This document shows positions 10,758 to 63,240 of a stretch of DNA of 64,000 bases, in pieces. The position numbers and the translations under genes were made by a program. Each line of letters opens with the position of its first letter. Positions within the stretch are counted from its first letter, which is position 1. The stretch lies in NCBI GenBank assembly GCA_026395685.1, contig JAPLYG010000009.1, positions 81,519 through 145,518 of the forward strand. The letters run 5' to 3'. The stretch is from Candidatus Parcubacteria bacterium (GTDB lineage Bacteria > Patescibacteriota > Patescibacteriia > CAIXNZ01). Below the pieces are notes generated by a model that was given only the letters and a program-made list of their open reading frames with translations, made no database searches and was not told where the DNA came from.

Positions 10758-10765
10758 ATCTCCTT

Positions 10766-11936: not shown

Positions 11937-12002
11937 GTTCTCCTTGCCTGCAAGCAGGCGCCGGGAGAACTTTGCTCCCGGATTGTTTTGCTGGTTTGTT
12001 GT

Positions 12003-13468: not shown

Positions 13469-13537
13469 TGATGATCGATTGGGGGAACCGATCATTTGGT
13501 TAGGGGGCTAGTTACCATCGAGCGTTAGGTTGATGGG

Positions 13538-15308: not shown

Positions 15309-15414
15309 AGTATTAAGGAAGGCTTAACCACAGATTTATTCTCACAGATTGCACAGATTTTTATCAATGTTATCTGTGAATTAAATCAGTGGTTCCGTTA
15401 TACATATTATACCA

Positions 15415-42809: not shown

Positions 42810-43547
42810 TCAATCTTCACGCTGGGCAATAACTAAACCATAAATCTCGGTAAAACCCGCCTGATACAATGCTTGAGCGCACTCCTTCAATGTACTGCCG
42901 GTAGTAATGACGTCATCTATTAAGATGGCTTTTTTAGTATTATCAAAATTCGATTTTAGGCAAAAAGCTTCCTTAACATTCTGCTGTCTTTCGCTTCTTT
43001 TCAAATTTATCTGGGTCTGAGTGTTCTTTATTCTTTCAATTATATTGGAAACTTCAATTCCGGTAGCTTCTTTTAGCTGAAGGGCAATCAATTCACTCTG
43101 ATTAAATCCCCGGAGTAACAAACGTTTTTTATGAAGCGGAACCGGGATAAAAATTGCCTTAGTTTTTTCTAAAGAAAACTCGGTCAATATGTTATTTAAA
43201 TTTAAATATTTAAGTAGAATTTCCCTTAAGATGGCGCTAATTTCTTCGATATAACCGTATTTTAGCTGATGTATCAGCTCCTGGATAACCTTTTGATTAT
43301 AATCAGTTGCCACCCAGATAGCTGCGATTTTTGTTTCAGCTGCACAACTTTCACAAATTTTTCCCCAAGGACTGGGCTTTTTGCAAAGTGCACAATAAAA
43401 TTCTTTGATCAGCTCTATTTGAGAAAGACACTGCTGACATAAATAATCCCCCTCTTTAGCGCAGCCGATACACTCTTTGGGAAAAATTAAATCCAACACA
43501 AATTCCTTAAACTTCTTTAACTCATTTTTAAAATTTTTCATGTACAA
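42810..43547 (-). CDS. comF: ComF family competence protein (phosphoribosyltransferase domain)
   Basis: N-terminal Cys cluster (CIGCAKEGDYLCQQC...CALCKK...CESC) and the PRTase motif AILIDDVITTGSTL near the C-terminus. Confidence 0.7.
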   Translation of the reverse strand: MYMKNFKNELKKFKEFVLDLIFPKECIGCAKEGDYLCQQCLSQIELIKEFYCALCKKPSPWGKICESCAAETKIAAIWVATDYNQKVIQELIHQLKYGYIEEISAILREILLKYLNLNNILTEFSLEKTKAIFIPVPLHKKRLLLRGFNQSELIALQLKEATGIEVSNIIERIKNTQTQINLKRSERQQNVKEAFCLKSNFDNTKKAILIDDVITTGSTLKECAQALYQAGFTEIYGLVIAQRED

Positions 43548-43565: not shown

Positions 43566-44189
43566 CTATTGCCAATATGCTCCACTTACCTTCCAGACAT
43601 CGTTTTCTTTAACTAAATTCAAAAGTAATTCCTGAGTAAAGGTATTGGATGTCACACTGTCTTTTTTAAATTCCTCGCGCTGGGTAGAAACGCGGACTTC
43701 GGCTGTATTTTTTTCTTCATCAAAAGCCGAGATATTAATATTCAATACTTTTGTCTCAACAGCATAATATTCCGAGGTCGGATGCTTAGAGGAAATTTCA
43801 TTTGTATATGTTTCCAAAACCCACTCTTTCATTTTGGCTGTCATATAATCCTTTATATTGTCAAAATTAACAAAACCCAGCTGATTATTATAACTGCCGT
43901 AATTTTGGGCAAAAACATTTACCAAAGAGGTGATACTTTCCTTATCACCCTTTTTAACATTTTCAGCCTCGGGAATAATATTAGCTGTACCATTTGTAGG
44001 ACTGCCGTTATTATTATTTACTGAATTCCCGTTGGTATTGCCAGTTACCTGCTGATTTATAATATTGGCATTTTCATTTGTCACTAGAGGCTTTTTATTA
44101 ACCATCATCAGCGCCAAATAACCGCCAATAACCAAAATCATTATGATTAAAATGATAATTAGTAATAGAACAATTTTTTTACTCATCAT
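43566..44189 (-). CDS. Bitopic membrane protein (207 aa); possible VirB8-like T4SS component
   Basis: N-terminal TM (IVLLLIIILIIMILVIGGYLALMM), an N/T-rich linker and a ~130-aa C-terminal domain. Its size and topology, and its position immediately downstream of the VirB4-like gene, suggest VirB8. The assignment is inferred, not motif-based. Confidence 0.35.
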   Translation of the reverse strand: MMSKKIVLLLIIILIIMILVIGGYLALMMVNKKPLVTNENANIINQQVTGNTNGNSVNNNNGSPTNGTANIIPEAENVKKGDKESITSLVNVFAQNYGSYNNQLGFVNFDNIKDYMTAKMKEWVLETYTNEISSKHPTSEYYAVETKVLNINISAFDEEKNTAEVRVSTQREEFKKDSVTSNTFTQELLLNLVKENDVWKVSGAYWQ

Positions 44190-46147: not shown

Positions 46148-46801
46148 TTATCTTTCTAAATTAAACTGAGTTAAATCCTTAATTTTTTGATTTTGGCTGG
46201 TCGTCGGATTATAGCAATTATAATACAGCTCAATCAATCCCTGAGTGTCCAGTGCAACGCTGTCAATGCCCATAGACTGCAGATTGGATCGTATATTATT
46301 AACCCTGAGCATTAATTCTTCCTTATATTTGGAAAAAACTTCCTTTCTTACTTTAATGATTTCTACCGGAAAAAGAGTTTCCTGAACTCTAGTAAAAAAA
46401 GATCTTTGTTTCTTTGAACCGGCCGGATGAAAGGGCACTACTACAAAAAACTTTTTGGTCATTATTTCATTCATTTCAATCAGCTGGCCGATATAATCAA
46501 TATAACCGGCTATTTGATTCCTCAAAAGCTCATTTTGCTGCAATTTTTCCGCTTCTTTTAAACGGCGGATATAACCCTCAATGTCTAATTTGCGCGACTG
46601 AATTACAATCTGTAAAGGATGGTCCAGGGAATTCAAAAACTGCATATATGATGAAATCAAAGCATTTTGTTCATCCTCGCCTTTCAAGGCGAAATTAACA
46701 CTGGAGCACATCAAAACAGCTCTTAAGGTGCCGTCGTGCATGATTACTATATCATCGCGGAATTCGGCCATTTGTAAATATTTTTGTACGGGAGCTGGCA
46801 T
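46148..46801 (-). CDS. VirB4 N-terminal (CagE/TrbE/VirB) domain, separated from the ATPase core by a single in-frame TAA
   Basis: DGTLRAVLMCSSVNFALKGEDEQNALISSYMQFLNSLDHPLQIVIQS resembles the N-terminal region of Gram-positive-type VirB4 homologues. It is in the same frame as 44213-46144: stop codon, one codon (TTT), then ATG. Confidence 0.55.
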   Translation of the reverse strand: MPAPVQKYLQMAEFRDDIVIMHDGTLRAVLMCSSVNFALKGEDEQNALISSYMQFLNSLDHPLQIVIQSRKLDIEGYIRRLKEAEKLQQNELLRNQIAGYIDYIGQLIEMNEIMTKKFFVVVPFHPAGSKKQRSFFTRVQETLFPVEIIKVRKEVFSKYKEELMLRVNNIRSNLQSMGIDSVALDTQGLIELYYNCYNPTTSQNQKIKDLTQFNLER

Positions 46802-46835: not shown

Positions 46836-47261
46836 TTATTCTTCTTCCTGATACGCACCGCCGGTATTAATGATCAAGCTTAAGGATGAAAGACGGGAGG
46901 TAACAAGCGGCGGTTTGATAATAAATTCTTTTTTCACTTCCATCTTCTCCGCTTTGACCACAGCCCGGGGCTCTACTTTTTTCCAAATTCGCATCTTAGG
47001 CTTTTTCAGAGTCTGCAGCAAATTAAGAAAAAAATAATGCATCGGCATGCCATTTATTTTAAAAAAAGCGATTAATAAAAATATTAAGGTAATTATAAGA
47101 GCAGATACAATAAAATAAGTAAAATTCATCGTCTTATACAATATAAAATCAATCATGGCGCAGACCATCATAATTAAAAACTGCCTAGTGGTAACCGGGC
47201 CGATAATTTTTGTTTCAATATCAATAAATTGGGGGACCAAAAATGGTCCAAGCATTGACAT
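46836..47261 (-). CDS. Small two-TM membrane protein, VirB3/PrgI-like (putative)
   Basis: 141 aa with two TM helices (FLIMMVCAMIDFILY; FIVSALIITLIFLLIAFF), placed immediately upstream of the VirB4 N-domain as VirB3 usually is. Confidence 0.35.
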   Translation of the reverse strand: MSMLGPFLVPQFIDIETKIIGPVTTRQFLIMMVCAMIDFILYKTMNFTYFIVSALIITLIFLLIAFFKINGMPMHYFFLNLLQTLKKPKMRIWKKVEPRAVVKAEKMEVKKEFIIKPPLVTSRLSSLSLIINTGGAYQEEE

Positions 47262-47319: not shown

Positions 47320-48540
47320 TCAATATTTAAGACTCTTATTCAGTTCCATGATTGCCTTGAATTCAACCAAAGTCAAATCCCCCCGTTCCTTGATAACCTG
47401 TTCAAAAGACTTGCCCTCCAAAAGGGATTTATTCATGATCTCCGCATAAACCTTGTATAAAGGGCTGGATTTCAGAGCTAAAACTCCCTGAGAGCGCTTA
47501 ACCACTGATTCGCCTTCTAATATTTCCAGCTTATCGGCAATTTTCTGAACTGCTTGAATCGGATCTTTGGACAAACGGCGAAAATCAGTCAAAGTCAAAG
47601 CTGCTAATTCATCAACGGGACCATACAATTTCGGCTCAAACTTGACGTCTGAAAACTGGGGCCTGCTTTTGGGTTCATTTCTCTTAACCATCGGCTGATT
47701 CACGGGCATAACTGGCTGTATTGGCTCAGGAGCTCTGGTTATGGCGGGAGAAGCCAGCGGCGCTTGAGTATTTGCCTGCGGCGCCGGCAATTCTTTTTGA
47801 CTTTGTAGAAAATCTTCTTCTTCCATGATTTCTTCGACCAGGTCAGGCTGTGCTTGCCGAAGAGGAGCCGCTGTTTTTCCCAAAGACAGTCCTCTTTCTT
47901 TAAGTAAATCTTCAATATTAGTTTCTTGTTTTGGCGCTATCTGTTCCAAAAGATCAAAAGACTTTTTCGGCTTGGCCGCCACATCAATTTCCTGTTCACT
48001 GACATTGCTAACCGGCTGGACTGTCTGCTGTTTTAAATCAATTCCTCTTTTTTGCCAGTCTGCTTTTTTGATACGCAGAATTTGCAGCAGCTTTTCAACA
48101 GCTTCCAGGCCAAGTCCGACACCGCCGATTTTTTCAGATTTCAAAAGTGAATCTTTAAATTCAATTTCATCGCGGATATCCTGCAGATATGAAAGGATCA
48201 GCTTAACCAGGCGATCAGTCATTATTTCATCCGGGTAAATATCGGACTGAGCTATCAATGCCTTTATTTCCGTCTGCAAATCAAAATTCATTGCCTGCTG
48301 GCTTTTTAATTCTTCCAGCAAAGAGGCCTTATCCTTTTCCGGCAGAAGATTCATTTCCACTGACAAATCAATGGCAGCATCAATATCCATATTCAAAACC
48401 TTATGCAGGCTATAGCCGACTTTTTTTGCTTCGACTTCGCCTGAAAGAGCCGTCTGTGCCAGCTGGCTAAAAGTCCCCACATCCTGAATATTATATTTTT
48501 TTACTAATTCTGAAAAAATGTTTGAATTCATAATCTGCAT
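47320..48540 (-). CDS. Hypothetical acidic coiled-coil protein (406 aa) in the T4SS-like cluster
   Basis: Long ORF with a Pro/Gln-rich middle (PAPQANTQAPLASPAITRAPEPIQP). No known domain. Confidence 0.4.
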   Translation of the reverse strand: MQIMNSNIFSELVKKYNIQDVGTFSQLAQTALSGEVEAKKVGYSLHKVLNMDIDAAIDLSVEMNLLPEKDKASLLEELKSQQAMNFDLQTEIKALIAQSDIYPDEIMTDRLVKLILSYLQDIRDEIEFKDSLLKSEKIGGVGLGLEAVEKLLQILRIKKADWQKRGIDLKQQTVQPVSNVSEQEIDVAAKPKKSFDLLEQIAPKQETNIEDLLKERGLSLGKTAAPLRQAQPDLVEEIMEEEDFLQSQKELPAPQANTQAPLASPAITRAPEPIQPVMPVNQPMVKRNEPKSRPQFSDVKFEPKLYGPVDELAALTLTDFRRLSKDPIQAVQKIADKLEILEGESVVKRSQGVLALKSSPLYKVYAEIMNKSLLEGKSFEQVIKERGDLTLVEFKAIMELNKSLKY

Positions 48541-48565: not shown

Positions 48566-51500
48566 CTAAGTTTTTTCCAAAGACTTTACATTAGAGGCAA
48601 TATCAGTCAAAGAGCGCCTGACTCTGTCCTTGTCCTGTATCGCCAGCGGATTAGTCTGGATCTCCCGGACTAAATTGGTCATGGAATCTCGCAGTTTATT
48701 AGCCACTGACTGGTCAAATCTCGCACCCAAGCTTTCCTCCATCTTTTTGAGTCCGCTATCAAGATTTTCCTGCATTCTTTTCACTCCCCTCAAAAGCAAA
48801 TCATTGGTAGCAGCACCATCAACGGCCGTAGTACCGGCCTTTATAAAATTATTATAATAATTAGAAACATTTACTGTCGTGGTAGTAGAACTAGGTGCTG
48901 CCTCCGGTCTTGGAGCTGGAGCAGGAGCTGGAGCTGGCGCAGGTGCTGGTTCAGCAGTTCCTGCTGGCGCAGGTGCTGCGGGTTTTGGCTTAGGTGCTGG
49001 AGGAGGAGTTCCTGCTGGCGGAGGAGTCCCTGCTGGCGGTGGTGTAACTGGTGGCTCTTCCTCTTCCTCAGGTTCCTCTTCAGCTGATATATCTACATCT
49101 TTATCTCCTCTTTTTCTGGGAATAGCAAACTTATAGAAGCCAATACCTTGGGCTCGGCTCAAAATACCATACATTTGTCCGCGCTGTCCCTTTAGGTCTT
49201 TACCCTTCAACTCTTCTAATTCTCCAATTAATTCCTCAAGCTTATCAATCTCCATAAATTCAGGAGAATAACCGGCAGTTTCAACTTCTTCCCTGATAGA
49301 ATATGCCAACGCCTCTAACCCTGCCTGAGCACTGGTAATTTTATCAGGAGTAGCTTGACCACTATTAACCTTGGCCAAAAGTCTTTTCAATCTGTCAGAA
49401 ACTTTGCTTTCAGAAGTATTCTTAATCTCACGCTGGTTAATGACATCTCCGCCATGCTCAACATAATCCGCATTGATTTCATCAAAATTTTCTATCTGTC
49501 CGACTTCTGTTGTAGCCATTTTCTTCATACTGCGGGAAACTATTTCTTGTGCCTGTTGCGGAGGTACACCTTTAACTGATTCTAATAAATCCGGCATTTC
49601 TTTTTCCATTTTACTAATAACTTCAGCTGCATTTCGTTCTTGCGGAGTAACTGCTTTGCCCTCACGCATCTTATCCTTAATGCCTCTATAATCATAAAGC
49701 GAGTATTCTTCGCCTTTAATCTTAAATTTCTTTCTTTGTCCGCTTTGATTAAAGAAGATAACTTCAGCCATTTCCTTGCTGGTTTCTCCAGTGACAATAT
49801 CATGGCCAGTACCCTGGACATATTTACCGCCACTAGTCTTATAGCCTTCCTGCAAAGCCTGCATATTTTCCGTGGAATACAACTCTTTATGCATCAAATC
49901 CATCTGCTCTACTTTGCCTTTAATAAACTTATCTCTTGCCTCACCGGTTAAACCTTTTTTGCCTGCTTCTTCTTCAGCATATTTCCTTCTGCCTGCTTCA
50001 TCCTTAGAAGCTGTAATATAGTGCAGCTGCATATCTTCTTCCTTATCCTTAATGAATTTCTTTTTTTCTTCCGGAGTAGTTATTCTGCCTTCTTTTTCCT
50101 CTTTATCTGCTAAATCTGCTACGAGCTTCTTCCTCTCAGCGTCTGTTCCTGTTATCACTTTAATCAGATCACCGGTTGCTTTCTTGCCATTTTTCAGACC
50201 CTGTTCGCCAGACTGCTTCATGCGACCGGCATTTTTTGACAGACCCATCCACAACGCCATTTTTTGCGCAATATTTCCTTCAGCCAGACTTCCTGCCTGC
50301 TTATTATTCATCGCCTTAGTTACCTTTGAAGTATCAGCTGCAGCCGCACTCTTCATCGTGTCTTTAGCTTTTTGGATTTCACCTGCCGTACCAGCCTGCA
50401 CCAGTTGAAATTCATTGGTTTCAGGATTTCTGACTACAGCTGAAACAGATATGCGGTAACCGGTTTTTTCCTCATGTTTATCCTCCCATTTTTTTGATAA
50501 TGCTTCCATATTGGCAACACCTCCTTTAGCTGATTTTTCCAGATCAATTACTTTCTTGCCGGTGGTTTCATCTGTTTTTGTTTTAATACCATAATGTTCA
50601 AAAACACCCAAGTCTAAAGCTTTCTGCATATCATTATCATCAATTAAACCCTGCTCACCTTTGAGATTTAAAAGCGCCAGAAAACGATCGCCGGTAGCAG
50701 TTTTCATCCGCTCGTTAAGTATTTTCGGATCTTTATCTGAACCAACCAGGCGTTCTTGTTTTTCATAATTCTCAATTTCTTTTTGTCTTTGTTCCACCAA
50801 AGCGCCCGGCTTGCCGCCGATCCATTTTTCTACTTGGGCAGTCGAACGCTCTCCCAGAGTTTCACGTCCTTTTTTGGTGGCTACCAGACGAATACCTTTG
50901 GAAATAGCGCCAGAGATGCCACCGCCACGTTCTACTCTTTCTAATCCTTCCTTAGCTGTTAAGCCGGCATATTGTCCGACTTTTCCGGCTGACCATTTGG
51001 CTGTGCGCTCCATTCTGCCCAAAGTCGCATCCTGGATCTTGCCTGCTGCTTTGCCTGCATAGCTGGCGCCCAAAACTTTCATTTCAGAAGTAAATTTCAA
51101 ACCGGCGACCAGCATAATAATGCCCAGCATGTACTTGATAACATAATCCAGACGCCCGGCTTTGGAATTCGCCACTGCATCATCCAGATTTGCCTGTCCC
51201 AGTCCGCCTTCACTGACCTTGGCCAGTTCCGTGGCATACATTACCGTATAATTATTGTTCAGTGTCAGAATTGAAATCCATAAAAAGAAAGCTAAAAGCG
51301 GCCCAACCAGGCAGTATTCTATAAAACTGTTTAACCAACGGCTGCCATAACCTCCGATTCTGCCGCTGACTCCGGTAAAAGCCATAGAAGCAAAGGCAAG
51401 CGGTGAAAAAACAACCAAAACCCAAAGGACAATTATTCTAAAAATTAAAATAATCAGAAAGATCGCGACCACAATCAAGGCGACGACCACATACATGAGC

Positions 51501-52606
51501 CCCAGTAATTTGGAAGAAATCAGCTGGAAGCTGGTTAAGCCTTCATTATTGGTAATCGGATCCCAGATATCGCGCATGCCTAACCCTTTAAATAAGTTCT
51601 CCCCGAGGATATCTTTATAAGCATTAACAAAAGTAAACATCACAACCTGAGACAGGTCGATGATCAGCCCGCAAATTGTACGGGAAAAATTAACCACCAC
51701 GGCCATGATCAGCAGTTTCGGCAAAAGCTTCTGCCACTGGTATCTTTCAATTTTCAGCACCGTAACAAAAGCCACAAAAAGCAAAGCCAGCACGAAAAAC
51801 ATATTGACCAGATCGCGCAAAACAATCCACCCCTGAATAACATAATATGAATTGATAAAATGATTAAATTTACTGACATTAACCACAAGCTCAAAAAATG
51901 CCACTAAAAGTTTGCCCAAAAGGCCGATAACTATATTTATAATAAAAGCCAGCACCTGGATTACAGCATTTGCCTCCTTGTTCCCCTCCTGGGATGTTTG
52001 CCCGTCACCGGTGCCTGTTGATGCAGGCGCAGGCGTCTCAGTCGCTGGGCTAACTTTAGGCTTACAGCAAATTGGCGCAGCCGCCTCACTACAATCCATT
52101 ACCGGAATCTCATCTTCAGTAGTCGTATCACAGCTAGGGCCGGGGCTACAATTGCCTCCTGCTGCAGCACATGCTGTTCCCGGAGCTGTCGGCGCTAAAG
52201 GCGCTGCCGTAGGTTTACAACAAACAGGAGTAGCCCCACTACATTCTGAGCCAGGAGCAAGAGTATCAGGACCAAGACAACCGCCATTAATTACACACGT
52301 GCCATTTTCAGTTGCTGTGCCTGTAGGTGTCTTGCCAGTACAGGGGGTAGCTGCCGGAGCTGCGCAACAAAAAGTCTCAGTGGCTGCACAAGCAGTCATG
52401 CCGGCAGGTACTGTGGTAATAGTCAAATTACTGGGAGTACACACACTTGCAGAACAAGTACCATTTTTCGGTATACCAGCCAAAGTACCATTGCAACTTG
52501 CAGCCAGCACCGGGCTTGCTACAAACAGAAGCAAACCCAGCCCCAGTGTCAGACCAGTCAGGAAAAGGAATGTTAATTTGTTTTTAAGAAAAGATAACAT
52601 CACCAT
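48566..52606 (-). CDS. Polytopic VirB6/TrbL-like membrane protein with Cys/Thr-rich N-terminal ectodomain and a long disordered, Pro-rich C-terminal tail (1346 aa)
   Basis: Signal peptide, Cys-rich region, then six or more TM helices in residues about 210-450, consistent with VirB6-like topology. This is followed by ~800 aa of K/E-rich coiled sequence and PPVTPPPAGTPPPAGTPPPAPKPKPAAPAPA...PAPAPAPAPAP. Confidence 0.45.
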   Translation of the reverse strand: MVMLSFLKNKLTFLFLTGLTLGLGLLLFVASPVLAASCNGTLAGIPKNGTCSASVCTPSNLTITTVPAGMTACAATETFCCAAPAATPCTGKTPTGTATENGTCVINGGCLGPDTLAPGSECSGATPVCCKPTAAPLAPTAPGTACAAAGGNCSPGPSCDTTTEDEIPVMDCSEAAAPICCKPKVSPATETPAPASTGTGDGQTSQEGNKEANAVIQVLAFIINIVIGLLGKLLVAFFELVVNVSKFNHFINSYYVIQGWIVLRDLVNMFFVLALLFVAFVTVLKIERYQWQKLLPKLLIMAVVVNFSRTICGLIIDLSQVVMFTFVNAYKDILGENLFKGLGMRDIWDPITNNEGLTSFQLISSKLLGLMYVVVALIVVAIFLIILIFRIIVLWVLVVFSPLAFASMAFTGVSGRIGGYGSRWLNSFIEYCLVGPLLAFFLWISILTLNNNYTVMYATELAKVSEGGLGQANLDDAVANSKAGRLDYVIKYMLGIIMLVAGLKFTSEMKVLGASYAGKAAGKIQDATLGRMERTAKWSAGKVGQYAGLTAKEGLERVERGGGISGAISKGIRLVATKKGRETLGERSTAQVEKWIGGKPGALVEQRQKEIENYEKQERLVGSDKDPKILNERMKTATGDRFLALLNLKGEQGLIDDNDMQKALDLGVFEHYGIKTKTDETTGKKVIDLEKSAKGGVANMEALSKKWEDKHEEKTGYRISVSAVVRNPETNEFQLVQAGTAGEIQKAKDTMKSAAAADTSKVTKAMNNKQAGSLAEGNIAQKMALWMGLSKNAGRMKQSGEQGLKNGKKATGDLIKVITGTDAERKKLVADLADKEEKEGRITTPEEKKKFIKDKEEDMQLHYITASKDEAGRRKYAEEEAGKKGLTGEARDKFIKGKVEQMDLMHKELYSTENMQALQEGYKTSGGKYVQGTGHDIVTGETSKEMAEVIFFNQSGQRKKFKIKGEEYSLYDYRGIKDKMREGKAVTPQERNAAEVISKMEKEMPDLLESVKGVPPQQAQEIVSRSMKKMATTEVGQIENFDEINADYVEHGGDVINQREIKNTSESKVSDRLKRLLAKVNSGQATPDKITSAQAGLEALAYSIREEVETAGYSPEFMEIDKLEELIGELEELKGKDLKGQRGQMYGILSRAQGIGFYKFAIPRKRGDKDVDISAEEEPEEEEEPPVTPPPAGTPPPAGTPPPAPKPKPAAPAPAGTAEPAPAPAPAPAPAPRPEAAPSSTTTTVNVSNYYNNFIKAGTTAVDGAATNDLLLRGVKRMQENLDSGLKKMEESLGARFDQSVANKLRDSMTNLVREIQTNPLAIQDKDRVRRSLTDIASNVKSLEKT
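48879..49060. repeat. Tandem GC-rich microsatellite-like repeats encoding the PAPAPA/PPAGTPPP tract
   Basis: (gctgga)n/(gcaggt)n and two-and-a-half copies of ggaggagtYcctgctggcgg lie inside the 1346-aa gene. Confidence 0.6.
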
Positions 52607-52612: not shown

Positions 52613-55600
52613 TTAATTGCACATAGAACCCTCGCAGCGGGAACCTGGGTTTAATGGATTCGGAATATTACACATATGGCAGTCAGGATTAAACTGTGTC
52701 GGCATACAGAAAGGCAACCAGGTATTACTATAAGTATAAGCAACCATTTTACACTTGGAATCTGCCACACAAGGAGCAGCCTCATCATATTCTTCACAGC
52801 CCAAAGTATCCTCTTTTATAATACAACCCATTGCATAAGTGCCAGCTGCCCAATGCTTACCCCAAAAACACTTAGGATCACGGGAACAAAGGAATCTGGT
52901 AGTCCATTTAGCACAGCCTGAAGAATCAAATCTGTCAACGCAAATACCGGTGGTCCAAGAGCAAAGGCCTAAAGTAGCATCACAATCTGCTTGAGATGTA
53001 TTCACGGAGCAATCTGTCCTACTGACACATGCAGGAGCCTTGGGCTCACAGCCAAATTGGTTTAGGCAACCAAACCATTGCTGATCAAGATTAATTTTAT
53101 AATCGCAGGTTGTTTTTGGCTCACAAAAATCTCCAAGAGTTGCTGCTGGAGTTGCTGTTGGAGCCTTCCAGTTACAAGCATCATTAGCTTGACAGGCACT
53201 CTTAAGCTGAATCGTTGTACAAAGATTCACGCATTGCTGATTGGGAAAATCCCAATAACAGCCATCATTGCCTGCTTCATTGCAGGTATCCTCGCTATAT
53301 TTTGTTTCACACGCAGAGGTGCAGAGATAATCTTCTCCGACCTCGCAGGTTGAACTATTTTTACATGCATTACTGGTTAATGGGGTTATATCTGATTTAC
53401 AGCAGACGCTGCCATAAGCAGTACATTGGATTCCCGGAGATAAAATATCTGTTTCCGCACAACTGCCAGAAGCCTGGCACTGGCCATTTATATAGGTATA
53501 ACCCGGATCGCCGACAGCTACTCCTGAACATAGCTGTGCAGTTACCAGCCCGGTAGTAGACATTTCTATACATTTATTTTCACATTTTAAATCTTGCTCA
53601 TTCCAGGAACAGTTTGTATTGCAACCAGCTGGATCTAAAATCAAATTGCAGGTATCACGGCAAACATCAGGCCGCCACTGACAAAATTTATCATCATTAC
53701 AAACTTTGGCATTAGGATTTGGAAGACAGCATATTGGAAAGTTATTATTCGGACATTTATTATCTACTGGAAACTCGTTAGATCCGCACTTACCCAGATT
53801 TTTTCTGCAGATACCGCCTGCATCTTTACAGGTTCCTACCGGAAGACTTTGTACTGCTGCCGGATATTTCTTATCGCACTGTAAATTACAGCTCCACCTC
53901 CAGCGATCTTTATCTGCCCAATAAGCATTCCAGGAGCAGTAATCTGCTTTTTGAGTCATACAAATCTCGCCTCTGGGGCCATGAGAATCAATATTTGTCG
54001 TACCCAAACCGCTATATCTATAAGTACAAATATCTTCCATGCAATAATGATTGAAATAGCTGCAATAAGTGGCAAGCGACTCACAGTCTTTTTGCTTTGT
54101 AGCTTCAGTGGCATTAATATTTGGCGTCGTAAGACTGCAAATATTGAAAAGGCAGGTAGCTGTGGCCTCATCCCAGGTACACATATCCTGGCCTGACTCA
54201 GTTACATCTTTTTCGCAATCTGTCTTATTCTTATGATAATCACACACATTTTTTATACATTGGCCGTTGTTCCACGCACAATAAGGCAGAAGTTCACACT
54301 TAGTTTTATTTTTCAGCAAGCCGCATTCGTCAATTTTAAAAGGAAAGTAAGTTAAACAAGCATTGGCGCCTTCACGATAAATTCCCCCATACAAGGGATT
54401 CAATAAATCATATTCCAGGCAACGGCCCTGAAAACCTAAATTTGTTTTAATGGTTTCAACAGCGCTGCATTGTCCGATGATTTTTTCATCAGTATTTTCC
54501 TCACTCAAAGGAATAACGCATTGGGGATTATTTTTTGTAACCCCCTGGCATAAGCGTCCCTCAACTGCTTTGTTGCCGGTACAAATTTGAGGCTTATTGT
54601 TTGATTCGCTTATAATTTTATTTAAAAATCCATAAGGAAAATAAGTAATGGTTCCTGTTGCTTCAGCCTTGTCATAATTACACCCGTCGGCAATATTTTT
54701 TAGGGTTAAAGTAGGACTAAAAAGATTAACCACCTTGCTATACTTGCTCAGCCGGGAAATATCATAAGGCAAAGGAGAATCTTCTTCCGGAAATATTTTG
54801 CAGACCGGGCTGATAAATCTTTGATCTGGTTCGGCAATGGGATCAACACTGGTATATTCCACGGGATACTTGGCAAACAAATATCCGTCATTAATTTCCA
54901 CTTCAACCGGATAGCGGTCAGGAATAGTATAACCGGAGTAATCTCCCAACTCCCAGCGTTTAATCGCATCATCCATGCCGGTTCCGCTTCCTGCAAATCT
55001 GGTAACATATGTGGCGCGGGTAATTTTTAATGGAGCCGAAGGTGTGGCTTTTGTATACCTGACTCCGTCAAAATTTGAGTGAATTAGAGGATCAGTATTA
55101 CCGGTATTTATTGTCTTGCTTATTTCCGTTGTCCCTTCAGAATTATAGGTAATAACCTGAGTCTGTCTGCAATTGCCTAGTCTGTCAGTTTCTGAACAGA
55201 TCACCCATTCTCCGCAGTCACGATCTTTGCTGACTTTTATAGTCTCAATATTATTATTACTGGTCTGATTTTTAAAAGCGACACAGCCTTTATTCCAATC
55301 AACGCTGGAACATGATGAACGGTCAATATTATTGCCGTTGTCAATTACATGATAAATCTGGCCGGAAGATTGATCCTGATTGATTGTCTGGAAACTGGAA
55401 CACCCGCTATATGCGCTCTGGCACTCACCGGTATAATTTATATACCCAGTATCAGTAACCTTAAGAATGCCAAAAGGATTGGCCACGCAAAGCCCTGCTC
55501 CTGAAGAAAGCCAGATGCCATGCTGATTTTCGCAATCAGCCTGACCTGTAGCTGACATGCCCTTACCGCACTGTTTCAAATCACCCACCCAGATACCGCC

Positions 55601-58600
55601 GCAATAGCTGCATGGTGTAGAACCAGTACTGCAGTCGGGCTGATTTCTCATGGTATTACATCCAATTTCTGTACCGGCCACAAACCAACCGCTTATAGTC
55701 TGCTGCTCGATCGGCTTATTAGCCTGGTACTGGCAAATTTTGGTCGGATCAATCTTGTAATATTCCGGCGAGCCGTTTTCATTGATCAGTTCCACGCAGC
55801 CTTCAGCATCCTGATTGCATAAAATTGCGCGCGCGCCTTCATAATTATCAGGATTATTTTTCAGATAAGCAACATCATAAACCACACCTGAACCCTGAGT
55901 CAAAACCGGCTCTTCAAATTTCTGACAGCCTTTATTCTCATACGTGCACTTGAATTTTTGGTTAACCACATAGGCTGTAAGTACATCTGACGGCACTGCA
56001 ATGTTCAGACTGGTCTTTGTATTCGGCGCTAAAGAATTCTGGGTATCAATCAGGTATTGGCAGCCAACTTTGTCAGCAGCGCATAATTTGCTGAATGATT
56101 TAAGATAAAACATCTGGCTGTTTGGCCCGCGATAAGCCGCGCAATTATAATCTACATAGGTGCAATTGGGCTGTGACCAGCTGTTTTTTATCAGATAATA
56201 ATTGTCTTTTTGCTGGATCAGGCTGATATTATCAAGGTTAAGCACATCAGTGCCGGAAACATTATTAAAGGTAATTGAGTCAAATGAAGAATTCAAATAG
56301 ATTGGCCCCAATTGGTACATATTCCAGGTATTCAATAATTCGGTTTCGCCAAAATTAGTTATGCGCAAAGTGCCGTTACCTTTGGCTGTAAATTGTAGAA
56401 TATAATAGTTGCCTTTGGAAAGAGTTGCTTGCCTGACAGCCGAGCCATAAGCCGCGATTTCCAGGGAATGACCGCCGGCATCCTGGCTGGCGGAACTTAA
56501 GCTGATGCCAGGACCGCTATACTGGGTCGGTAAATTGACGCTGTCTTCAAAAGTATCGTTAAATGAATGATAGGTATTATAAATGCCGGCACCATAATAA
56601 TGATAACATCCTGCCTGGGCTGCCGGACATTTCATGCTTAAAGAAGAAATGCCATCGTAAACGCAGTACTTATTGGTTTCATCCCACTTGCCATTAGTGA
56701 CACCGCAGGTTTCTTGAGTCGCAATGGTTTTTCTGTAAGGATGGCAATCTGCTGAGGCAATAATGGTTTTTCTGACATCCCGAAAATAAGTATTTCCGGC
56801 TGAATCGTAAAACTTCAGGCAATAACCGGTTGACAAAACATTGCTCCTGCAATCCTCTGAATTATCAAAAGTTTTGGGAGAACCGTCACCATTTGCCTGT
56901 AAAACATGCTTGACCACTTGTTGCGGTCCATCAGAAATACTTTCCCAGGTATAAAAAGTCTGTTCCCCCAAGCCAGAACCGGGCTTAATGCACTGCCTGA
57001 GCATTGTATAGTATTCAATGCCCTCGCCTCCCTTGGCTACTTCATCTAAATTAGTAAATTGGGAACAGCCGACATTAGCTGCCTGACAGGTTGTAGCAGT
57101 CTTTGGTACAAAGTCGGCTAATTCGCGAATCGGCTCAAAAGCAGTAGGCTGTTGAATATATTGATTATAACCGACGCATTCTGCCGGACACTGATCATCT
57201 TCCTGAATTACAGCCGTAACATCAGGATCACCATTTACCGGCTGGTACAAAGCGCAACCAACATCATCAGAGGAACATTTCATCATAAAATTATTGCAAT
57301 CATTGCGGGTGGGGCTGCTAGAATCGCAATTGGCGCTGGTTTTGTAATATACTCTGGTTGCCAAAACATCCTGATCATAACTGGCCGGCAAAACAAAACC
57401 CGTTGCCTGAAAATCGCTGATAGTCGTAGGATTTGCGATATATTCATGGCAGCCGTCATTCTTTTCCTCGCATGTTTCGATATTGCGATTGAAATAAAAT
57501 TTATCTAAGTTGTAGGTTTTATCAATTGATTTATAGCCTTTGCAATTAACTGTATCGGGCCCGCAATTGGAGGGGTCTAAAGTATTTTTGAGATACGCCA
57601 AATCAGCTTCACGGCCATTGGATTGAATCTGAGTATAGGTACGACAGCTGGAAAAATAGTCCGGGCAGGCTTTAGCGCTAAAACGCCAGACATTCTTTTC
57701 CTTAACACAAACCTGATAATTGCTGCTGCCGCAGGATTTAGGCTGATCATCTTTGACACAACTCACAAAATCAGCGCAACGCGAATAGCGGCGTCCTGAT
57801 TGATTATCCGTCAGAAGTTCGCCAAATGATTCAACCTGCAATGTCCTGGCGTCAGTCGGCAGATAACACTTGGTAGCCGGAATTTTTAAAACCCAATATG
57901 GATCAACCAGATTGCAAAATGGTGATTCTGCAGTGTCATAATTGCCGCAAATACCGTCCTGGCCGCGCTTATCAAAAGCAGTAACAATCTCCCCAAAAGT
58001 AGCATTGACAACCTGATTATACATTAATTTATTAACTTCTATATCAGTCCCAAATTTACAATTGTCAATCCTTTGTTTCGCATAGGGGGAAATAGGAAGT
58101 GTGGTCATTGATAAATCAATAAACTGTCCGAAATCATTACCCGTTGAAGCTGTATAAGCGCAATTAGCCGTACCCGGTACACAGGAAACACAACTGGCAT
58201 TATCAGCAGACCAAGAACACAAATTAGTAATGGATAGACAACTAGACAGTCCCAGGCTCTGGCAGGGATTATAATATTTACGGAAGTTACAATCTCTTAC
58301 CAGTTCAGCTGCCAGCTCCATGCCCAAAGGCACAACACGCGCTTTTCTCAGTTTTCTTATATTGGATAAATTGTAGGTATTATCTTCAATCTCTTCACCC
58401 CAGGAAAATGTGGCACCGGACTTTAATTTGCCCTGGCTAAGCGCCTGATCAATGGTCAGCCTGTTTTGAATAGCCATGGCAAAACTTTGATCAATGACCT
58501 GATTATAAATATTGGGATTAGCATTTTTACCCTGCAGATTGAGCTGGAATTCCTGCAATAAATCCAGATCGGAAAATTCATTATTGGTGCCCGGCTCAAA

Positions 58601-60205
58601 ACTGGTGAAATAAAGGGATACTCCGGACTCGGTAATAATACTTTGATTCTCTTTGACGAAAATACTGCCTTTATTTTCCTTCTGTTTTCTGGGATTTGAC
58701 AGAGCCATCATAAGCTCATTGATATACAAATTATATAATTCCTGTAAAAAGACGCCCAAAGAATCAGCCACAATACTCTTTGTATATTCAGTCATGCTGT
58801 CAGATGGAGTGAGAGACTGAATTGATTTCGCTTTCAAAATATCAGCCGGAGTTTTAATATAGCCTGTTACTTTATCCACCATGCCTTTCCAGCCGCCACT
58901 GGTACTGACTTCTGTTTTTTTGCGTTCTTCTGCTTCAGTCTGGGCTTTGCCTGTGCCTTCTTGCACCTGCGTTTTAGTGGTATTGGCCGGATCTGCCTGT
59001 GGTTCAAACTGAGTTTTTGCTTTTTGATAAGTATAAAGTCCGGCTCCGCGGAACATCTTGGCCTGGATGCGGTTATTAACAAATTTTTGCAGCTGCTCGT
59101 AGCCATTACTGATAGAATTATAAAGATTAGCGGCATCCTGCAGTTTAGCCTGGGCTTCGCGCTGAAAAATACCTGCCGCCTGAGAACCAGGTGCCACTTC
59201 AGCTGCAGTCGGGATCGTAGTATAACCGACATTCATTAAGGCTTGCTTGCATTGATTAATTAAGCCAGTGGCGTCTTTTTTCATGCAGGCTTGGTAGGTG
59301 GCGCGGCTGGTATTAACCGGACGCTGGGCATCATTAATTTTTTTATTCCAGGCACTTTTAATATCAGGTATATATTCTTCAGAAACATAATAATTGCTGC
59401 CCACAGTCAGGGTAACCGGCTGGTTTGTTCCCCTGCCGGCTATTAATTTATCAACGTCAGCATCTAATTGCTGTCTGGTAAGGTCTAAGGCTGCTGCTTT
59501 GGCTGTTAAATCTGATTTAGCCGAGGTACCTGCTAAAAGACTGTCACTGGTAATATCACGATTGATTTGGCTTACTGTCTGCTGAAAATTCGGACCAATA
59601 TCAGTTGTTTTAATTTTAATGAAATCCTGCCATTCCTTGCCTTCGAAATTAAATTGTTCCTTTAATTCCAAAAAGCTGCAACCTTTGGGAACTGCGCCAA
59701 AAATGCTTTTTTGCGCTAAAGTGTCGGGCTTATTCGGCAAAGTCAGGGCAATATTCAAGGTCAGAGTAGGATCAAAATGGCAGAGATCAAGGCCGATTCC
59801 CTGGCTTACTGCTCCCGTCAACCAGTCTTCAAAAGCAGCCTGGCCCTGGTCTTTTATCGCACCATAAGGGTCTGTTTCCCAAATCGGCTTTTGGCCTTTG
59901 CCCATTAAAACAATCGAGGAAGCGGTTTTTTTGGCAAATTCTCTGCCCAGATTGGCAACTACGTTTTTGAAAAAAGTCGCTTTCAGATCGTCCAATACTT
60001 CGTCTTTAGTAAATTTTGCAAATTCCAATCCCTTCCAACCCGTCTGGATGGATGATAAAAGAGAATCAATTACCATCTGGACCTGGGCATTAGCCGGATT
60101 AATATCAACAAAAAGAAAAAAATAAAAATTGCTTAGCACAAAAAAGAAAACCAAAAAGGAAAGAATCGCCTTATTGATTTTCTTTTTATTTTCATTTCCC
60201 CGCAT
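52613..60205 (-). CDS. Giant Cys-rich secreted protein (2530 aa), last-but-one gene of the T4SS-like block
   Basis: N-terminal signal/TM (ILSFLVFFFVLSNFYFFLFV...ANA), about 150 Cys throughout, and no internal stops. No confidently recognisable catalytic domain. Confidence 0.6.
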   Translation of the reverse strand: MRGNENKKKINKAILSFLVFFFVLSNFYFFLFVDINPANAQVQMVIDSLLSSIQTGWKGLEFAKFTKDEVLDDLKATFFKNVVANLGREFAKKTASSIVLMGKGQKPIWETDPYGAIKDQGQAAFEDWLTGAVSQGIGLDLCHFDPTLTLNIALTLPNKPDTLAQKSIFGAVPKGCSFLELKEQFNFEGKEWQDFIKIKTTDIGPNFQQTVSQINRDITSDSLLAGTSAKSDLTAKAAALDLTRQQLDADVDKLIAGRGTNQPVTLTVGSNYYVSEEYIPDIKSAWNKKINDAQRPVNTSRATYQACMKKDATGLINQCKQALMNVGYTTIPTAAEVAPGSQAAGIFQREAQAKLQDAANLYNSISNGYEQLQKFVNNRIQAKMFRGAGLYTYQKAKTQFEPQADPANTTKTQVQEGTGKAQTEAEERKKTEVSTSGGWKGMVDKVTGYIKTPADILKAKSIQSLTPSDSMTEYTKSIVADSLGVFLQELYNLYINELMMALSNPRKQKENKGSIFVKENQSIITESGVSLYFTSFEPGTNNEFSDLDLLQEFQLNLQGKNANPNIYNQVIDQSFAMAIQNRLTIDQALSQGKLKSGATFSWGEEIEDNTYNLSNIRKLRKARVVPLGMELAAELVRDCNFRKYYNPCQSLGLSSCLSITNLCSWSADNASCVSCVPGTANCAYTASTGNDFGQFIDLSMTTLPISPYAKQRIDNCKFGTDIEVNKLMYNQVVNATFGEIVTAFDKRGQDGICGNYDTAESPFCNLVDPYWVLKIPATKCYLPTDARTLQVESFGELLTDNQSGRRYSRCADFVSCVKDDQPKSCGSSNYQVCVKEKNVWRFSAKACPDYFSSCRTYTQIQSNGREADLAYLKNTLDPSNCGPDTVNCKGYKSIDKTYNLDKFYFNRNIETCEEKNDGCHEYIANPTTISDFQATGFVLPASYDQDVLATRVYYKTSANCDSSSPTRNDCNNFMMKCSSDDVGCALYQPVNGDPDVTAVIQEDDQCPAECVGYNQYIQQPTAFEPIRELADFVPKTATTCQAANVGCSQFTNLDEVAKGGEGIEYYTMLRQCIKPGSGLGEQTFYTWESISDGPQQVVKHVLQANGDGSPKTFDNSEDCRSNVLSTGYCLKFYDSAGNTYFRDVRKTIIASADCHPYRKTIATQETCGVTNGKWDETNKYCVYDGISSLSMKCPAAQAGCYHYYGAGIYNTYHSFNDTFEDSVNLPTQYSGPGISLSSASQDAGGHSLEIAAYGSAVRQATLSKGNYYILQFTAKGNGTLRITNFGETELLNTWNMYQLGPIYLNSSFDSITFNNVSGTDVLNLDNISLIQQKDNYYLIKNSWSQPNCTYVDYNCAAYRGPNSQMFYLKSFSKLCAADKVGCQYLIDTQNSLAPNTKTSLNIAVPSDVLTAYVVNQKFKCTYENKGCQKFEEPVLTQGSGVVYDVAYLKNNPDNYEGARAILCNQDAEGCVELINENGSPEYYKIDPTKICQYQANKPIEQQTISGWFVAGTEIGCNTMRNQPDCSTGSTPCSYCGGIWVGDLKQCGKGMSATGQADCENQHGIWLSSGAGLCVANPFGILKVTDTGYINYTGECQSAYSGCSSFQTINQDQSSGQIYHVIDNGNNIDRSSCSSVDWNKGCVAFKNQTSNNNIETIKVSKDRDCGEWVICSETDRLGNCRQTQVITYNSEGTTEISKTINTGNTDPLIHSNFDGVRYTKATPSAPLKITRATYVTRFAGSGTGMDDAIKRWELGDYSGYTIPDRYPVEVEINDGYLFAKYPVEYTSVDPIAEPDQRFISPVCKIFPEEDSPLPYDISRLSKYSKVVNLFSPTLTLKNIADGCNYDKAEATGTITYFPYGFLNKIISESNNKPQICTGNKAVEGRLCQGVTKNNPQCVIPLSEENTDEKIIGQCSAVETIKTNLGFQGRCLEYDLLNPLYGGIYREGANACLTYFPFKIDECGLLKNKTKCELLPYCAWNNGQCIKNVCDYHKNKTDCEKDVTESGQDMCTWDEATATCLFNICSLTTPNINATEATKQKDCESLATYCSYFNHYCMEDICTYRYSGLGTTNIDSHGPRGEICMTQKADYCSWNAYWADKDRWRWSCNLQCDKKYPAAVQSLPVGTCKDAGGICRKNLGKCGSNEFPVDNKCPNNNFPICCLPNPNAKVCNDDKFCQWRPDVCRDTCNLILDPAGCNTNCSWNEQDLKCENKCIEMSTTGLVTAQLCSGVAVGDPGYTYINGQCQASGSCAETDILSPGIQCTAYGSVCCKSDITPLTSNACKNSSTCEVGEDYLCTSACETKYSEDTCNEAGNDGCYWDFPNQQCVNLCTTIQLKSACQANDACNWKAPTATPAATLGDFCEPKTTCDYKINLDQQWFGCLNQFGCEPKAPACVSRTDCSVNTSQADCDATLGLCSWTTGICVDRFDSSGCAKWTTRFLCSRDPKCFWGKHWAAGTYAMGCIIKEDTLGCEEYDEAAPCVADSKCKMVAYTYSNTWLPFCMPTQFNPDCHMCNIPNPLNPGSRCEGSMCN

Positions 60206-60245: not shown

Positions 60246-61067
60246 TTACTCATACTTATTAATAATCTGATCAAAAATCTGCTTTAATGTCTCATCATCT
60301 AGCTGGTCAACCGTAGCCTTATCCATGCCTCTGATGATCAGTTCTTCACGCAGCTGCGCCGGGGTCATATTTTTCAAATTATCAAGAGCCTGCTTTTTTT
60401 CTTCATCGGTCGCAACACCTTCCTGGCTTACAGCTCCGACATTCTTCATTTCATCAAACATTTTCTGAAGTTCCGGATTATCAATGCCAATATCCTTTAA
60501 AGTTTTGGTGCCGGCAATTAATTCCTGCTGATACTGCATGAGCTTGTCCATATCGCCTTCTTTCAGCGTATTCAATACTTCGCTTGGAGAATAAGTGCTT
60601 TCCGGCAAAGCAGCGGTTTCATTAATATTTAAAGCTCCGCAAACCTGGCCCTGCGGGCAATTGGGATCTTCGCCCTTGAGCAGTTCGTCCTTATCGCTGA
60701 TTTTATCACTATCAGTATCGGATAAATATGGGCTGGTGCCGTAAATATTCAGTTCGCTCCAATCATCCAAACCGTCCAAATCGCTGTCTTGATTTTTCAA
60801 TTGGGCAATCACTTCTTCCTCACTAGTCTGGAATAATTTGTTATACTCATCAATCAGCTGGCCGCGCTTATGCTCGAGTAATGAGGGGTAAAGCGGACCC
60901 TGAATATTTTTAATAAACTGCAGATAGCCAAGACCGACCGCAGAAATTGTAATCAATATTAAAAAAAACACGAAAAACTTTTCCATCGGAGTTTTTTCGA
61001 TTTTAGATACAATTTTTTCGGCTTTTGGCTCTAAGTAATTTTTGATTTTCTCATCAATTGGCGACAT
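60246..61067 (-). CDS. Membrane-anchored protein with Asp-rich Ca-binding-like (TSP3/dockerin-type) repeats (273 aa)
   Basis: TM (FFVFFLILITISAVGLGYLQF) and DSDLDGLDDWSE...DTDSDKISDKDE loops. Confidence 0.4.
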   Translation of the reverse strand: MSPIDEKIKNYLEPKAEKIVSKIEKTPMEKFFVFFLILITISAVGLGYLQFIKNIQGPLYPSLLEHKRGQLIDEYNKLFQTSEEEVIAQLKNQDSDLDGLDDWSELNIYGTSPYLSDTDSDKISDKDELLKGEDPNCPQGQVCGALNINETAALPESTYSPSEVLNTLKEGDMDKLMQYQQELIAGTKTLKDIGIDNPELQKMFDEMKNVGAVSQEGVATDEEKKQALDNLKNMTPAQLREELIIRGMDKATVDQLDDETLKQIFDQIINKYE

Positions 61068-62634: not shown

Positions 62635-63240
62635 TTATATTTCATCAATTAATCCGGGATACTTTGTATAAATATATTGATAATTTGCCGCATCAAAAAT
62701 GTTATGCTTTGCGGGATTATTATAAAGATATCGCATATGTTGATTAAAATCATCATAATTGCGAATATAATGATCGTGAAGTGATTTTTGCCAATGAAAT
62801 TTTACATACAAAGTTTGATTTAATCCATATTTTGCCACAAATTGACGGCGCGTTGTAATCAAATATTCATAATGCTTTTCGATTATCTCTTCATAAATTT
62901 TATATTCCTCCCCCAATTGAAGGAGCGATTTGCAAATCGCTCCTTCGTCGACATAACCTAAGATAAAATTTATATTCCTGGTATAGTGTCTTTTGATAAA
63001 TTGCATTATTTTCGATAAATCCATCGCTTCATACGGCAAAAACATTAAATGAAAATGATCCAATAATATTACAAACGAATATAAATCAAATTTGTGCCTT
63101 TTTTTCGCCAATTTTAAAATTTCAATAAACAACTCGCAAAAAATCGACTCCTTAAAATATTCAACCCGGTTATCGGCAACACCTGTCACAAAATAAGTCG
63201 CCCCTTCAAAATATATCCGTTTTTGCGCTCCTTTATGCAT
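62635..63240 (-). CDS. Y1 (HUH) transposase family protein, IS200/RAYT-like (second copy)
   Basis: HUH motif in LLDHFHLMF. The C-terminal WQKSLHDHYIRNYDDFNQHMRYLYNNPAKHNI...YQYI is conserved with the 19610-20230 protein. A perfect 28-bp palindrome lies at 62919-62946 in frame. Confidence 0.75.
   Translation of the reverse strand: MHKGAQKRIYFEGATYFVTGVADNRVEYFKESIFCELFIEILKLAKKRHKFDLYSFVILLDHFHLMFLPYEAMDLSKIMQFIKRHYTRNINFILGYVDEGAICKSLLQLGEEYKIYEEIIEKHYEYLITTRRQFVAKYGLNQTLYVKFHWQKSLHDHYIRNYDDFNQHMRYLYNNPAKHNIFDAANYQYIYTKYPGLIDEI
62919..62946. repeat. Perfect 28-bp palindrome inside the second Y1 transposase gene
   Basis: gaaggagcgatttgcaaatcgctccttc equals its own reverse complement and encodes EGAICKSLL in frame. 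Confidence 0.8.

Follow-up and report, generated by a model that had tools for sequence, protein, structure and literature searches.

The stretch of DNA analyzed here, which we call the window, comprises 64,000 nucleotides from a genome assembly of Candidatus Parcubacteria bacterium (GCA_026395685.1, contig JAPLYG010000009.1, positions 81,519 to 145,518 of the forward strand). Our subject is a gene on its minus strand that encodes a protein of 2530 residues, hereafter the giant, and that lies between the gene for a 273-residue partner protein (p273) and a run of genes resembling a type IV secretion system (T4SS). An earlier note, made from the sequence without database searches, had described a single uninterrupted open reading frame (ORF) of 7.6 kb at this place, and we confirm it: the frame at 52613..60205 (-) starts with ATG, stays open over 2530 codons, and gives a product identical to the protein NTZ49_02720 of an NCBI metagenome-assembled genome (Candidatus Parcubacteria bacterium), which is encoded on a 164-kb contig. 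The coordinates of the gene, of the regions into which its product divides, and of the neighboring genes are collected in the table below.

The giant ORF is one real gene and no assembly artifact. Three full-length homologues of 2381-2509 residues are colinear with the giant at 41-43% BLASTP identity and keep most of its cysteine columns, and 60 complete homologous ORFs (1,717-3,350 residues, median 2,582) could be read among 79 retained GTDB loci, with the start and the signal peptide of the giant conserved across these relatives. The earlier note had allowed that the frame might split into several genes or match a housekeeping family; it stays whole in 60 intact ORFs from independent assemblies as well as in the colinear homologues, and the Pfam, NCBIfam, and PDB sequence-profile searches gave no match. 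That the ORF is chimeric, merged by a frameshift, or a decaying pseudogene is refuted by these data, to which we can add that the best 150 of the 1,251 cluster representatives of the family described below are mostly 2,000-3,660 residues long; nothing was found in favor of such an artifact, and its probability is negligible. The gene contains no tandem repeats at the DNA level, which implies that the modules of the protein are old and diverged. A promoter and terminator scan returned 21 terminator-like sites, with 19 expected.

The signal peptide proposed in the earlier note is also confirmed (see table). Its hydrophobic core is the only strongly hydrophobic segment of the giant, which has no other transmembrane segment, and the same holds for the family: an N-terminal hydrophobic segment is found in 56 of 60 relatives and a second one in almost none, and the relatives carry classical signal peptides that end in AxA, with Q, T, or A as the next residue. 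Because the giant and its relatives bear these classical cleavable Sec signal peptides, the suggestion that the protein is exported with the T4SS is unlikely. The LPXTG motif, the RTX motif (GGxGxD), and a C-terminal anchor are absent from the giant, and no LPXTG occurs in the last 60 residues of 60 relatives; the sortase-anchored and RTX readings were rejected accordingly.

Cysteine accounts for 140 residues of the giant (5.53%), compared with a mean of 1.32% for the other 43 ORFs of the window, and its distribution is strongly graded, with none in residues 1-100, 4 before residue 600, and 9-14 per 100 residues over the last 600. The number of cysteines is even in 54 of 60 relatives (binomial p = 1e-10), and in core alignments of 28 and 50 sequences most of the invariant columns are cysteines. 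Together with the Sec signal and the lack of a further transmembrane segment, these even counts and near-invariant columns support an extracellular protein stabilized by disulfides, in which the 140 cysteines would probably pair in ∼70 bonds. The earlier description of a disulfide-stabilized surface fiber or adhesin thus stands in its first part; that the protein is a fiber or an adhesin is something we infer from the features discussed below, with no known adhesin or pilus family matched.

The spacing of the cysteines differs from that reported in the earlier note, which had cited CxxC, CxC, and CGxxxC patterns in the C-terminal 500 residues. The counts there are 1, 0, and 0, respectively, below the means of 6.9, 6.7, and 0.5 in composition-preserving shuffles, and the whole giant holds only 3, 0, and 0. 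The close spacings CxxC, CxC, and CC are all depleted, and for this reason we rejected a reading of the cysteines as metal or redox sites. The recurrent elements are of another kind. A hairpin motif of the core, C-x4-8-[GSN]-C-x1-3-[YFLW], most typically in the form C-x5-6-G-C-xx-[YF], is present in 12 copies versus 1.4 in shuffles, none of 2000 of which reached 12, and the family median is 11 copies. The pattern Cx[WY] is seen 10 times with 3.9 expected (P = 0.001), and residues 1970-2470 hold 7 strict or ∼10 loose copies of a four-cysteine module, C-x3-12-C-x-[WYF]-x3-14-C-x3-4-C.

Two AlphaFold2 models, built from alignments of 27-28 rows, cover residues 38-735 and 736-1700 of the giant. 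The N-terminal tile (m567e661fe230) is all-helical with a mean predicted local distance difference test score (pLDDT) of 59.7, rising to 90-98 over residues ∼208-382, and a fold search of the PDB with this model returned only generic helical bundles, all at E ≥ 0.28, so that no fold was assigned. The last third of the N-terminal domain (residues ∼400-640) is conserved family-wide and includes the near-invariant sequence LRKARVxPxGxELAA. The core tile consists almost entirely of short β-hairpins (mean pLDDT 69.9, predicted template modeling score (pTM) 0.40), which agrees with the hairpin motif found in the sequence, and its first part, core A, is the best conserved part of the family.

Within the core tile, model residues 480-600 (residues ∼1215-1335 of the giant) are predicted to form one compact β-sandwich with pLDDT values of 81-92. 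In a Foldseek search this sandwich resembles the carbohydrate-binding modules (CBMs) CBM29, CBM16, CBM4, CBM22, and a porphyran CBM, with template modeling scores of 0.55-0.62 and a root mean square deviation (rmsd) of 3-4 Å over ∼140 columns, and the structure search also finds the same fold in phage tail-fiber proteins. Relatives carry a recognizable sequence match at the equivalent position: positions 1627-1737 of the relative L009 match Pfam CBM_4_9 (E = 1.2e-11) and map to residues ∼1221-1331 of the giant, the homologous segments of L072 and L031 likewise match CBM_4_9 above the Pfam gathering score, and other relatives have extra CBM_4_9 domains inserted where the giant has none. The earlier note had proposed a jelly-roll or lectin fold for a central stretch, and the peptide it quoted lies at residues ∼1249-1286, inside the sandwich; the predicted structure and the matches at the homologous position both bear this out. 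The models and the relatives together support a CBM4/9-like jelly-roll domain at residues ∼1215-1335, with putative glycan binding. Searches of the whole giant against Pfam and NCBIfam returned no family at E ≤ 0.1, and a sequence-profile search of the PDB with a four-member alignment returned nothing at E ≤ 1.

Conservation falls steeply along the protein. The share of the family that aligns is 75-100% over residues 400-1500 and 0-1% over residues 2000-2530, and identity to the three close homologues is 15-37% in the last 570 residues versus 39-67% over most of the first 1,900.

We defined the family by the profile A3 of the core (residues ∼736-1215), in a search with which the giant itself is the top match (E = 7.8e-222). 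An exhaustive hidden Markov model search with the core profile yielded 1,251 representatives of 50%-identity clusters at E ≤ 1e-3, of which 1,131 remain at E ≤ 1e-30, and a scan that took a single genome for each GTDB species gave >599 pattern matches and 564 confirmed relatives, i.e. at least 564 species. With so long a query the word-indexed homologue searches became saturated and gave only 7, 6, and 6 matches, and the size of the family is taken from the genome scan and the profile search. The family is not rare, and the giant is hence no one-off oddity of this genome; it shares with its relatives the core homology with LVDPxWVLK, DxCPxECVGY, and the invariant cysteines, the Sec signal, and the even cysteine count. 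The carriers are environmental lineages of the candidate phyla radiation (CPR), not Saccharibacteria, and titles of the family records name Falkow-, Buchanan-, Uhr-, Magasanik-, Kuenen-, and Komeilibacteria, Paceibacter, and Parcubacteria. Many related contigs (L006, L008, L014, and others) are titled "uncultured Gammaproteobacteria bacterium" (third-party annotation assemblies) yet carry the CPR-type operon, and these titles look like placeholder or mislabeled taxonomy. Among the papers within reach of our literature search, none describes the family or its partner protein, and none the repeats or the linkage to a T4SS. The family is large, unnamed, and CPR-wide, and apart from the CBM it is without a match in Pfam, NCBIfam, or the PDB.

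The giant belongs to a compact gene run in which all genes from p273 to ComF share the minus strand and are separated by 3-58 nt. For p273, precomputed matches to TSP3_bac are weak or faint, and the protein is a candidate membrane anchor or dock for the giant. Downstream, the gene for a polytopic membrane protein of 1346 residues (p1346) starts 6 nt past the stop codon of the giant. One of 24 p1346 homologues matches Pfam TrbL/VirB6 (E = 3e-5), whereas p1346 itself has no direct Pfam match, is matched in a PDB profile search only over its low-complexity tail, and gave nothing in a tblastn search against plasmids; position and topology make it a candidate VirB6-like protein. The VirB4 function is split, in that a 217-residue TraC-N/TrsD-like gene ends 3 nt before the gene for the 643-residue P-loop VirB4 protein, as is reported for most Patescibacteria; a role for TrsD is described in PMC12102498.

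The order p273, giant, VirB6-like, p406, PrgI, TrsD, VirB4, p207, ComF recurs on the P0003 contig and in GTDB loci of several CPR lineages. A p273 homologue lies directly upstream of the giant in 69 of 70 loci and ksgA upstream in 47 of 60, a p1346 homologue follows downstream in 35 of the 39 loci that have room for it, and PrgI, TrsD, and VirB4 are all present in 8 of 8 loci whose sequence runs on for ≥8 kb from the p1346 start, and in 14 of 16 where it runs on for ≥7 kb. The comparison with other CPR T4SS loci that the earlier note had called for thus places giant homologues at the head of the same operon in many species. The adjacency to T4SS-like genes on which that note had built is conserved to this extent, but ∼8 of 47 loci (∼17%), like the P0006 contig, retain the p273-giant pair with unrelated genes directly downstream, so that a downstream T4SS is typical of the family without defining it. 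In these exceptional loci (L032, L034, L060, L073, L078, L027, L028, and L037) the genes that follow encode, for example, a kinase and seryl-tRNA synthetase, or further Cys-rich secreted proteins.

A mini-module of five cysteines, G-x-C-x5-C-x11-12-C-x6-CC-K-P, is present in three copies at the extracellular N terminus of p1346 (residues ∼50-182). The same module occurs twice in the giant as lineage-specific insertions, where its close homologues P0002-P0004 are gapped at both sites. Among 36 p1346 homologues it is found only in the closest relative (L001/L002; L001 17214-21299), which has four copies.

The T4SS-like genes are flanked by radA, recG, and comF, an arrangement reported as common in ABY1-class loci; the organism, labeled Candidatus Parcubacteria, has this ABY1-type arrangement and is no Saccharibacterium. 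The flanking genes hint that DNA is taken up or processed and not exported by conjugation.

Coordinates in the window of the giant gene, the regions of its product, the genes of its operon, and other features
Feature	Coordinates	Strand	Characteristics
Giant gene	52613..60205	-	2530 residues, 140 Cys; product identical to NTZ49_02720
Signal peptide, residues 1-40	60086..60205	-	K-rich n-region, hydrophobic core at residues 13-35, predicted signal peptidase I site ANA↓Q
N-terminal all-α domain, residues 41-640	58286..60085	-	Cys-poor (4 Cys); proposed cell-proximal base; AlphaFold2 model
Cys-rich insert, residues 641-735	58001..58285	-	Lineage-variable; in P0001 and P0002, largely missing from P0003 and P0004 (alignment)
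Core A, residues 736-1214	56564..58000	-	All-β (predicted), putatively disulfide-stapled hairpin repeats C-x5-6-G-C-xx-[YF]; LVDPxWVLK, DxCPxECVGY
Jelly-roll β-sandwich, residues ∼1215-1335	56201..56563	-	CBM4/9-like, putative glycan-binding; AlphaFold2 and Foldseek
Core B/C, residues 1336-1960	54326..56200	-	More hairpin repeats; blocks YYLIKxSW, KVxKDRDC..W..C, CKIFPEEDSP, GRCLExD
C-terminal hypervariable region, residues 1961-2530	52616..54325	-	9-14 Cys per 100 residues, ∼10 four-Cys Cx[WY] modules; proposed distal tip
Five-Cys mini-module, residues ∼2125-2162	53720..53833	-	C-x6-C-x6-C..C-x7-CC-LP; insertion only in this giant
Second five-Cys mini-module, residues ∼2241-2271	53393..53485	-	G-x-C-x5-C-x11-C-x6-CC-K; same type as at the N terminus of p1346
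p273, 273-residue partner	60246..61067	-	One transmembrane helix, two TSP3-like acidic Ca-binding repeats DxDxDGLxDxxE, CPxGxxC pair, conserved C-terminal helical motif
p1346, polytopic membrane protein	48566..52606	-	Signal/transmembrane segment, three five-Cys modules, ∼6-7 transmembrane helices, long charged Pro-rich tail
p406, 406-residue conserved operon member	47320..48540	-	No transmembrane segment, no family match
PrgI/VirB3-like	46836..47261	-	PF12666, E = 6e-8
TrsD/TraC-N-like	46148..46801	-	Separately encoded; resembles the VirB4 N-terminal part
VirB4-type ATPase	44213..46144	-	TraG P-loop, AAA_10
p207, 207-residue single-transmembrane protein	43566..44189	-	Conserved operon member
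ComF(C)-like	42810..43547	-	Double zinc ribbon and phosphoribosyltransferase; last gene of the tightly spaced run
recG	39317..41383	-	Flanks the T4SS-like genes
radA	32149..33486	+	Flanks the T4SS-like genes
Cys-rich protease ORF	34290..38372	-	1360 residues, 64 Cys (4.7%)
152-residue ORF	38774..39232	-	7 Cys (4.6%)
IS200-like Y1 transposase ORF	19610..20230	-	Between pheS and pheT
IS200-like Y1 transposase ORF	62635..63240	-	Between GT2 and DUF2304 genes
ORF in G+C-rich stretch	11326..12012		Weak outer-membrane β-barrel match

Taken together, these observations lead us to propose, with a probability of about 0.5, that the giant is a Sec-exported, disulfide-stapled stalk or adhesin for host contact, conserved at its base and hypervariable at its tip, which works with the T4SS-like machine and is not its substrate. 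After export by Sec and cleavage at the predicted site, the ∼70 putative disulfides would form outside the cell and staple the β-hairpin repeats, giving a mostly β stalk that is rigid and resists proteases. The base next to the cell would be the conserved helical domain at the N terminus, probably docked on the always-adjacent p273, on portions of the VirB6-like protein that lie outside the cell, or on the two together, the jelly-roll in mid-stalk may bind a glycan on the partner cell, and the C-terminal ∼570 residues, with their fast-evolving array of four-cysteine modules, would present a distal, host-specific tip. The giant and p273 would then be the host-contact component of a monoderm-type T4SS-like machine (VirB6-like, PrgI, TrsD, VirB4, and ComF), and the giant would fill the role that PrgB-type adhesins have in Gram-positive conjugation systems. 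A bolder version of this proposal holds that the p273-giant pair is a previously unrecognized, widely conserved extracellular part of the Patescibacteria T4SS that, as a giant disulfide-stapled stalk, replaces a pilus or a sortase-anchored adhesin, docks the ultra-small cell on host glycans by way of CBM domains and the hypervariable tip, and at comF/recG/radA loci positions the T4SS for import of host DNA or nucleotides and not for the export of substrates; this we put forward tentatively, since we consider it rather unlikely in its full form.

Several points weigh against the proposed stalk or adhesin. The AlphaFold2 models reach only moderate quality, with mean pLDDT values of ∼70 and ∼60 and a pTM of 0.40, and for this reason do not establish an elongated shape, and the jelly-roll of the giant itself has no match among Pfam families at E ≤ 0.1. 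After the Pfam, NCBIfam, PDB-profile, and N-terminal fold searches, >2,000 residues are left with no fold assigned, and the N-terminal domain or the core may hold an enzymatic or pore-forming activity. The identification of p1346 as VirB6-like is weak, and the loci in which unrelated genes follow p273 and the giant suggest that the pair may work without an adjacent T4SS.

This last point is the starting position of an alternative in which p273 and the giant are a self-contained envelope or adhesion module, such as an S-layer-like scaffold, a holdfast, or a general adhesin, and the adjacency to the T4SS is synteny inherited near ksgA. The near-constant pairing of p273 and the giant, kept where the T4SS is missing downstream, is what such a module would give, Sec export needs no T4SS, and ksgA, which so often lies upstream, is known with other housekeeping genes to cluster near virB4 in these genomes. 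On the other hand, in loci of several CPR lineages with enough sequence the T4SS genes nearly always come next, with order and strand unchanged, the whole run is tightly spaced with a gap of 6 nt between the giant and the VirB6-like gene, and in this lineage the five-cysteine mini-module is common to the giant and the extracellular N terminus of the VirB6-like protein. We regard an independent module as rather unlikely. A more intimate connection with the T4SS would exist if the giant oligomerized as a tube or needle that extends the channel in place of a VirB2 pilus and passes DNA or nutrients. In other Patescibacteria classes the neighborhood of virB4 commonly includes VirB2-like pilins, and we saw no gene for one between p273 and ComF, although small pilin genes may lie elsewhere in the genome or have been missed. 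The presence of comF in the operon with recG and radA nearby could point to import, and a role in the uptake of DNA or nucleotides has been suggested for the CPR T4SS. Yet the models show neither a channel nor an oligomerization interface, and CBM domains with a variable C-terminal tip are what one expects of a binding protein and not of a conduit. We think an extracellular conduit improbable.

We give equally little credence to a secreted effector, either a toxin or an enzyme acting on polysaccharide or the cell wall, in which the CBM would target an unrecognized catalytic or pore-forming domain to the host envelope in the manner of VirB1 or of binary and Vip toxins. Foldseek does list chains of Vip3, Cry, iota-toxin, and glycosidases, the conserved N-terminal segment contains an invariant Glu (..PxGxELAA) with no function assigned, and most Patescibacteria have few VirB1 homologues in the vicinity of virB4. 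The alignments to the Vip3, Cry, and binary toxins are long, however, with an rmsd of 19-40 Å, and are driven by β-sandwich domains, only isolated CBMs matching compactly; the toxin reading of the Foldseek result was rejected on this basis. Nor did Pfam, NCBIfam, the PDB sequence profile, or the N-terminal fold search return a catalytic family, and the extreme disulfide stapling and the repeat architecture suit a structural protein.

The T4SS-like system of CPR/Patescibacteria has been described as completely unknown in its role and is essential in the one species tested. What is new here is a giant, conserved, host-facing candidate component of this system, with a family of at least 1,251 sequence clusters and at least 564 species, a defined partner, a domain of glycan-binding type, and a hypervariable tip. 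An "uncolored" hypothetical gene of published T4SS neighborhood maps would thereby become a testable part of the machine, with concrete targets in labeling for cryo-electron tomography, glycan-binding assays, the prediction of host range from the tips, and the structure of a new disulfide-stapled hairpin repeat.

Some further features of the window deserve mention. A second large Cys-rich ORF encodes a papain-family C1 protease domain with DUF333 and a GLUG motif, and the 152-residue ORF between recG and this protease gene is also rich in cysteine and has no family match. The window also has two ORFs for IS200-like Y1 transposases. The one at 19610..20230 separates pheS from pheT, and the other has no counterpart in the syntenic locus L001; both look like insertions into otherwise conserved gene runs. 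The stretch at ∼10000-16000 has a G+C content of 0.42-0.46, compared with 0.35-0.40 in most neighboring blocks, and may be acquired DNA. An ORF within it weakly matches an outer-membrane β-barrel (E = 1e-4), which would be unexpected if the organism has no outer membrane.

The size and likely exposure of the giant invite comparison with the giant adhesins of the RTX/Bap/LapA type of Gram-negative bacteria, which are secreted by type I secretion systems and are likewise of several thousand residues. In these a stalk of repeats carries, toward its distal end, domains that bind ligands and are often lectin-like. Those adhesins, however, use a C-terminal type I secretion signal, Ca-binding RTX repeats, and Ig-like tandem repeats, whereas the giant has an N-terminal Sec signal, no GGxGxD, and no Pfam match to Ig, cadherin, or Big domains, and would be stabilized by its putative disulfides in place of calcium. 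The large Cys-rich exported proteins of Peribacteria, proposed to serve in attachment and rigidity (Anantharaman et al. 2016; PMC4736985), resemble the giant in size, signal peptide, and unusual cysteine content. Their description is confined to composition and a weak similarity to Myxococcus Cys-rich repeats, with no T4SS linkage, partner protein, or repeat motif given, and our comparison is with this description and implies no homology; in Pfam and NCBIfam the giant has no match at E ≤ 0.1 to the Myxococcus Cys-rich repeat or any other curated Cys-rich repeat model. With CBM_4_9 (PF02018), CBM16, CBM22, CBM29, and phage tail fibers the giant shares the β-sandwich fold predicted for its jelly-roll, in a copy too diverged to reach the gathering threshold of the Pfam model; the domain amounts to 5% of the giant and is not joined to a glycoside hydrolase.

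Among T4SS components, a VirB2 pilin and a VirB5 tip protein were rejected as counterparts, these being of ∼100-250 residues, with a hydrophobic hairpin (VirB2) or a helical bundle (VirB5), and the giant of 2530 with no matching Pfam family. The closest parallel in proposed role is PrgB (aggregation substance), together with the other surface proteins that Gram-positive MPF-FATA conjugative operons such as that of pCF10 encode before their channel genes; the Patescibacteria T4SS is reported to be related to this class or derived from it. A published survey of Patescibacteria T4SS loci contains no PrgB-type adhesin, and genes with no database match were left gray and undiscussed there. PrgB and the giant are both large surface proteins exported by Sec, and the gene for each opens an operon of the PrgI/VirB3, VirB4, and VirB6 type; like PrgB the giant would hold the partner cell against the channel. 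The likeness ends at the level of sequence and build: the giant has no sequence or domain similarity (Pfam, NCBIfam) to PrgB, with its polymer adhesin domain and Ig-like stalk, it and its 60 relatives lack the LPXTG sorting signal, and it is about twice the size of PrgB, with ∼70 putative disulfides. Where PrgB has its adhesin domain, Ig-like stalk, and sorting signal, the giant would have Cys-stapled hairpins and a CBM, with a partner of a single transmembrane helix taking the place of sortase anchoring.

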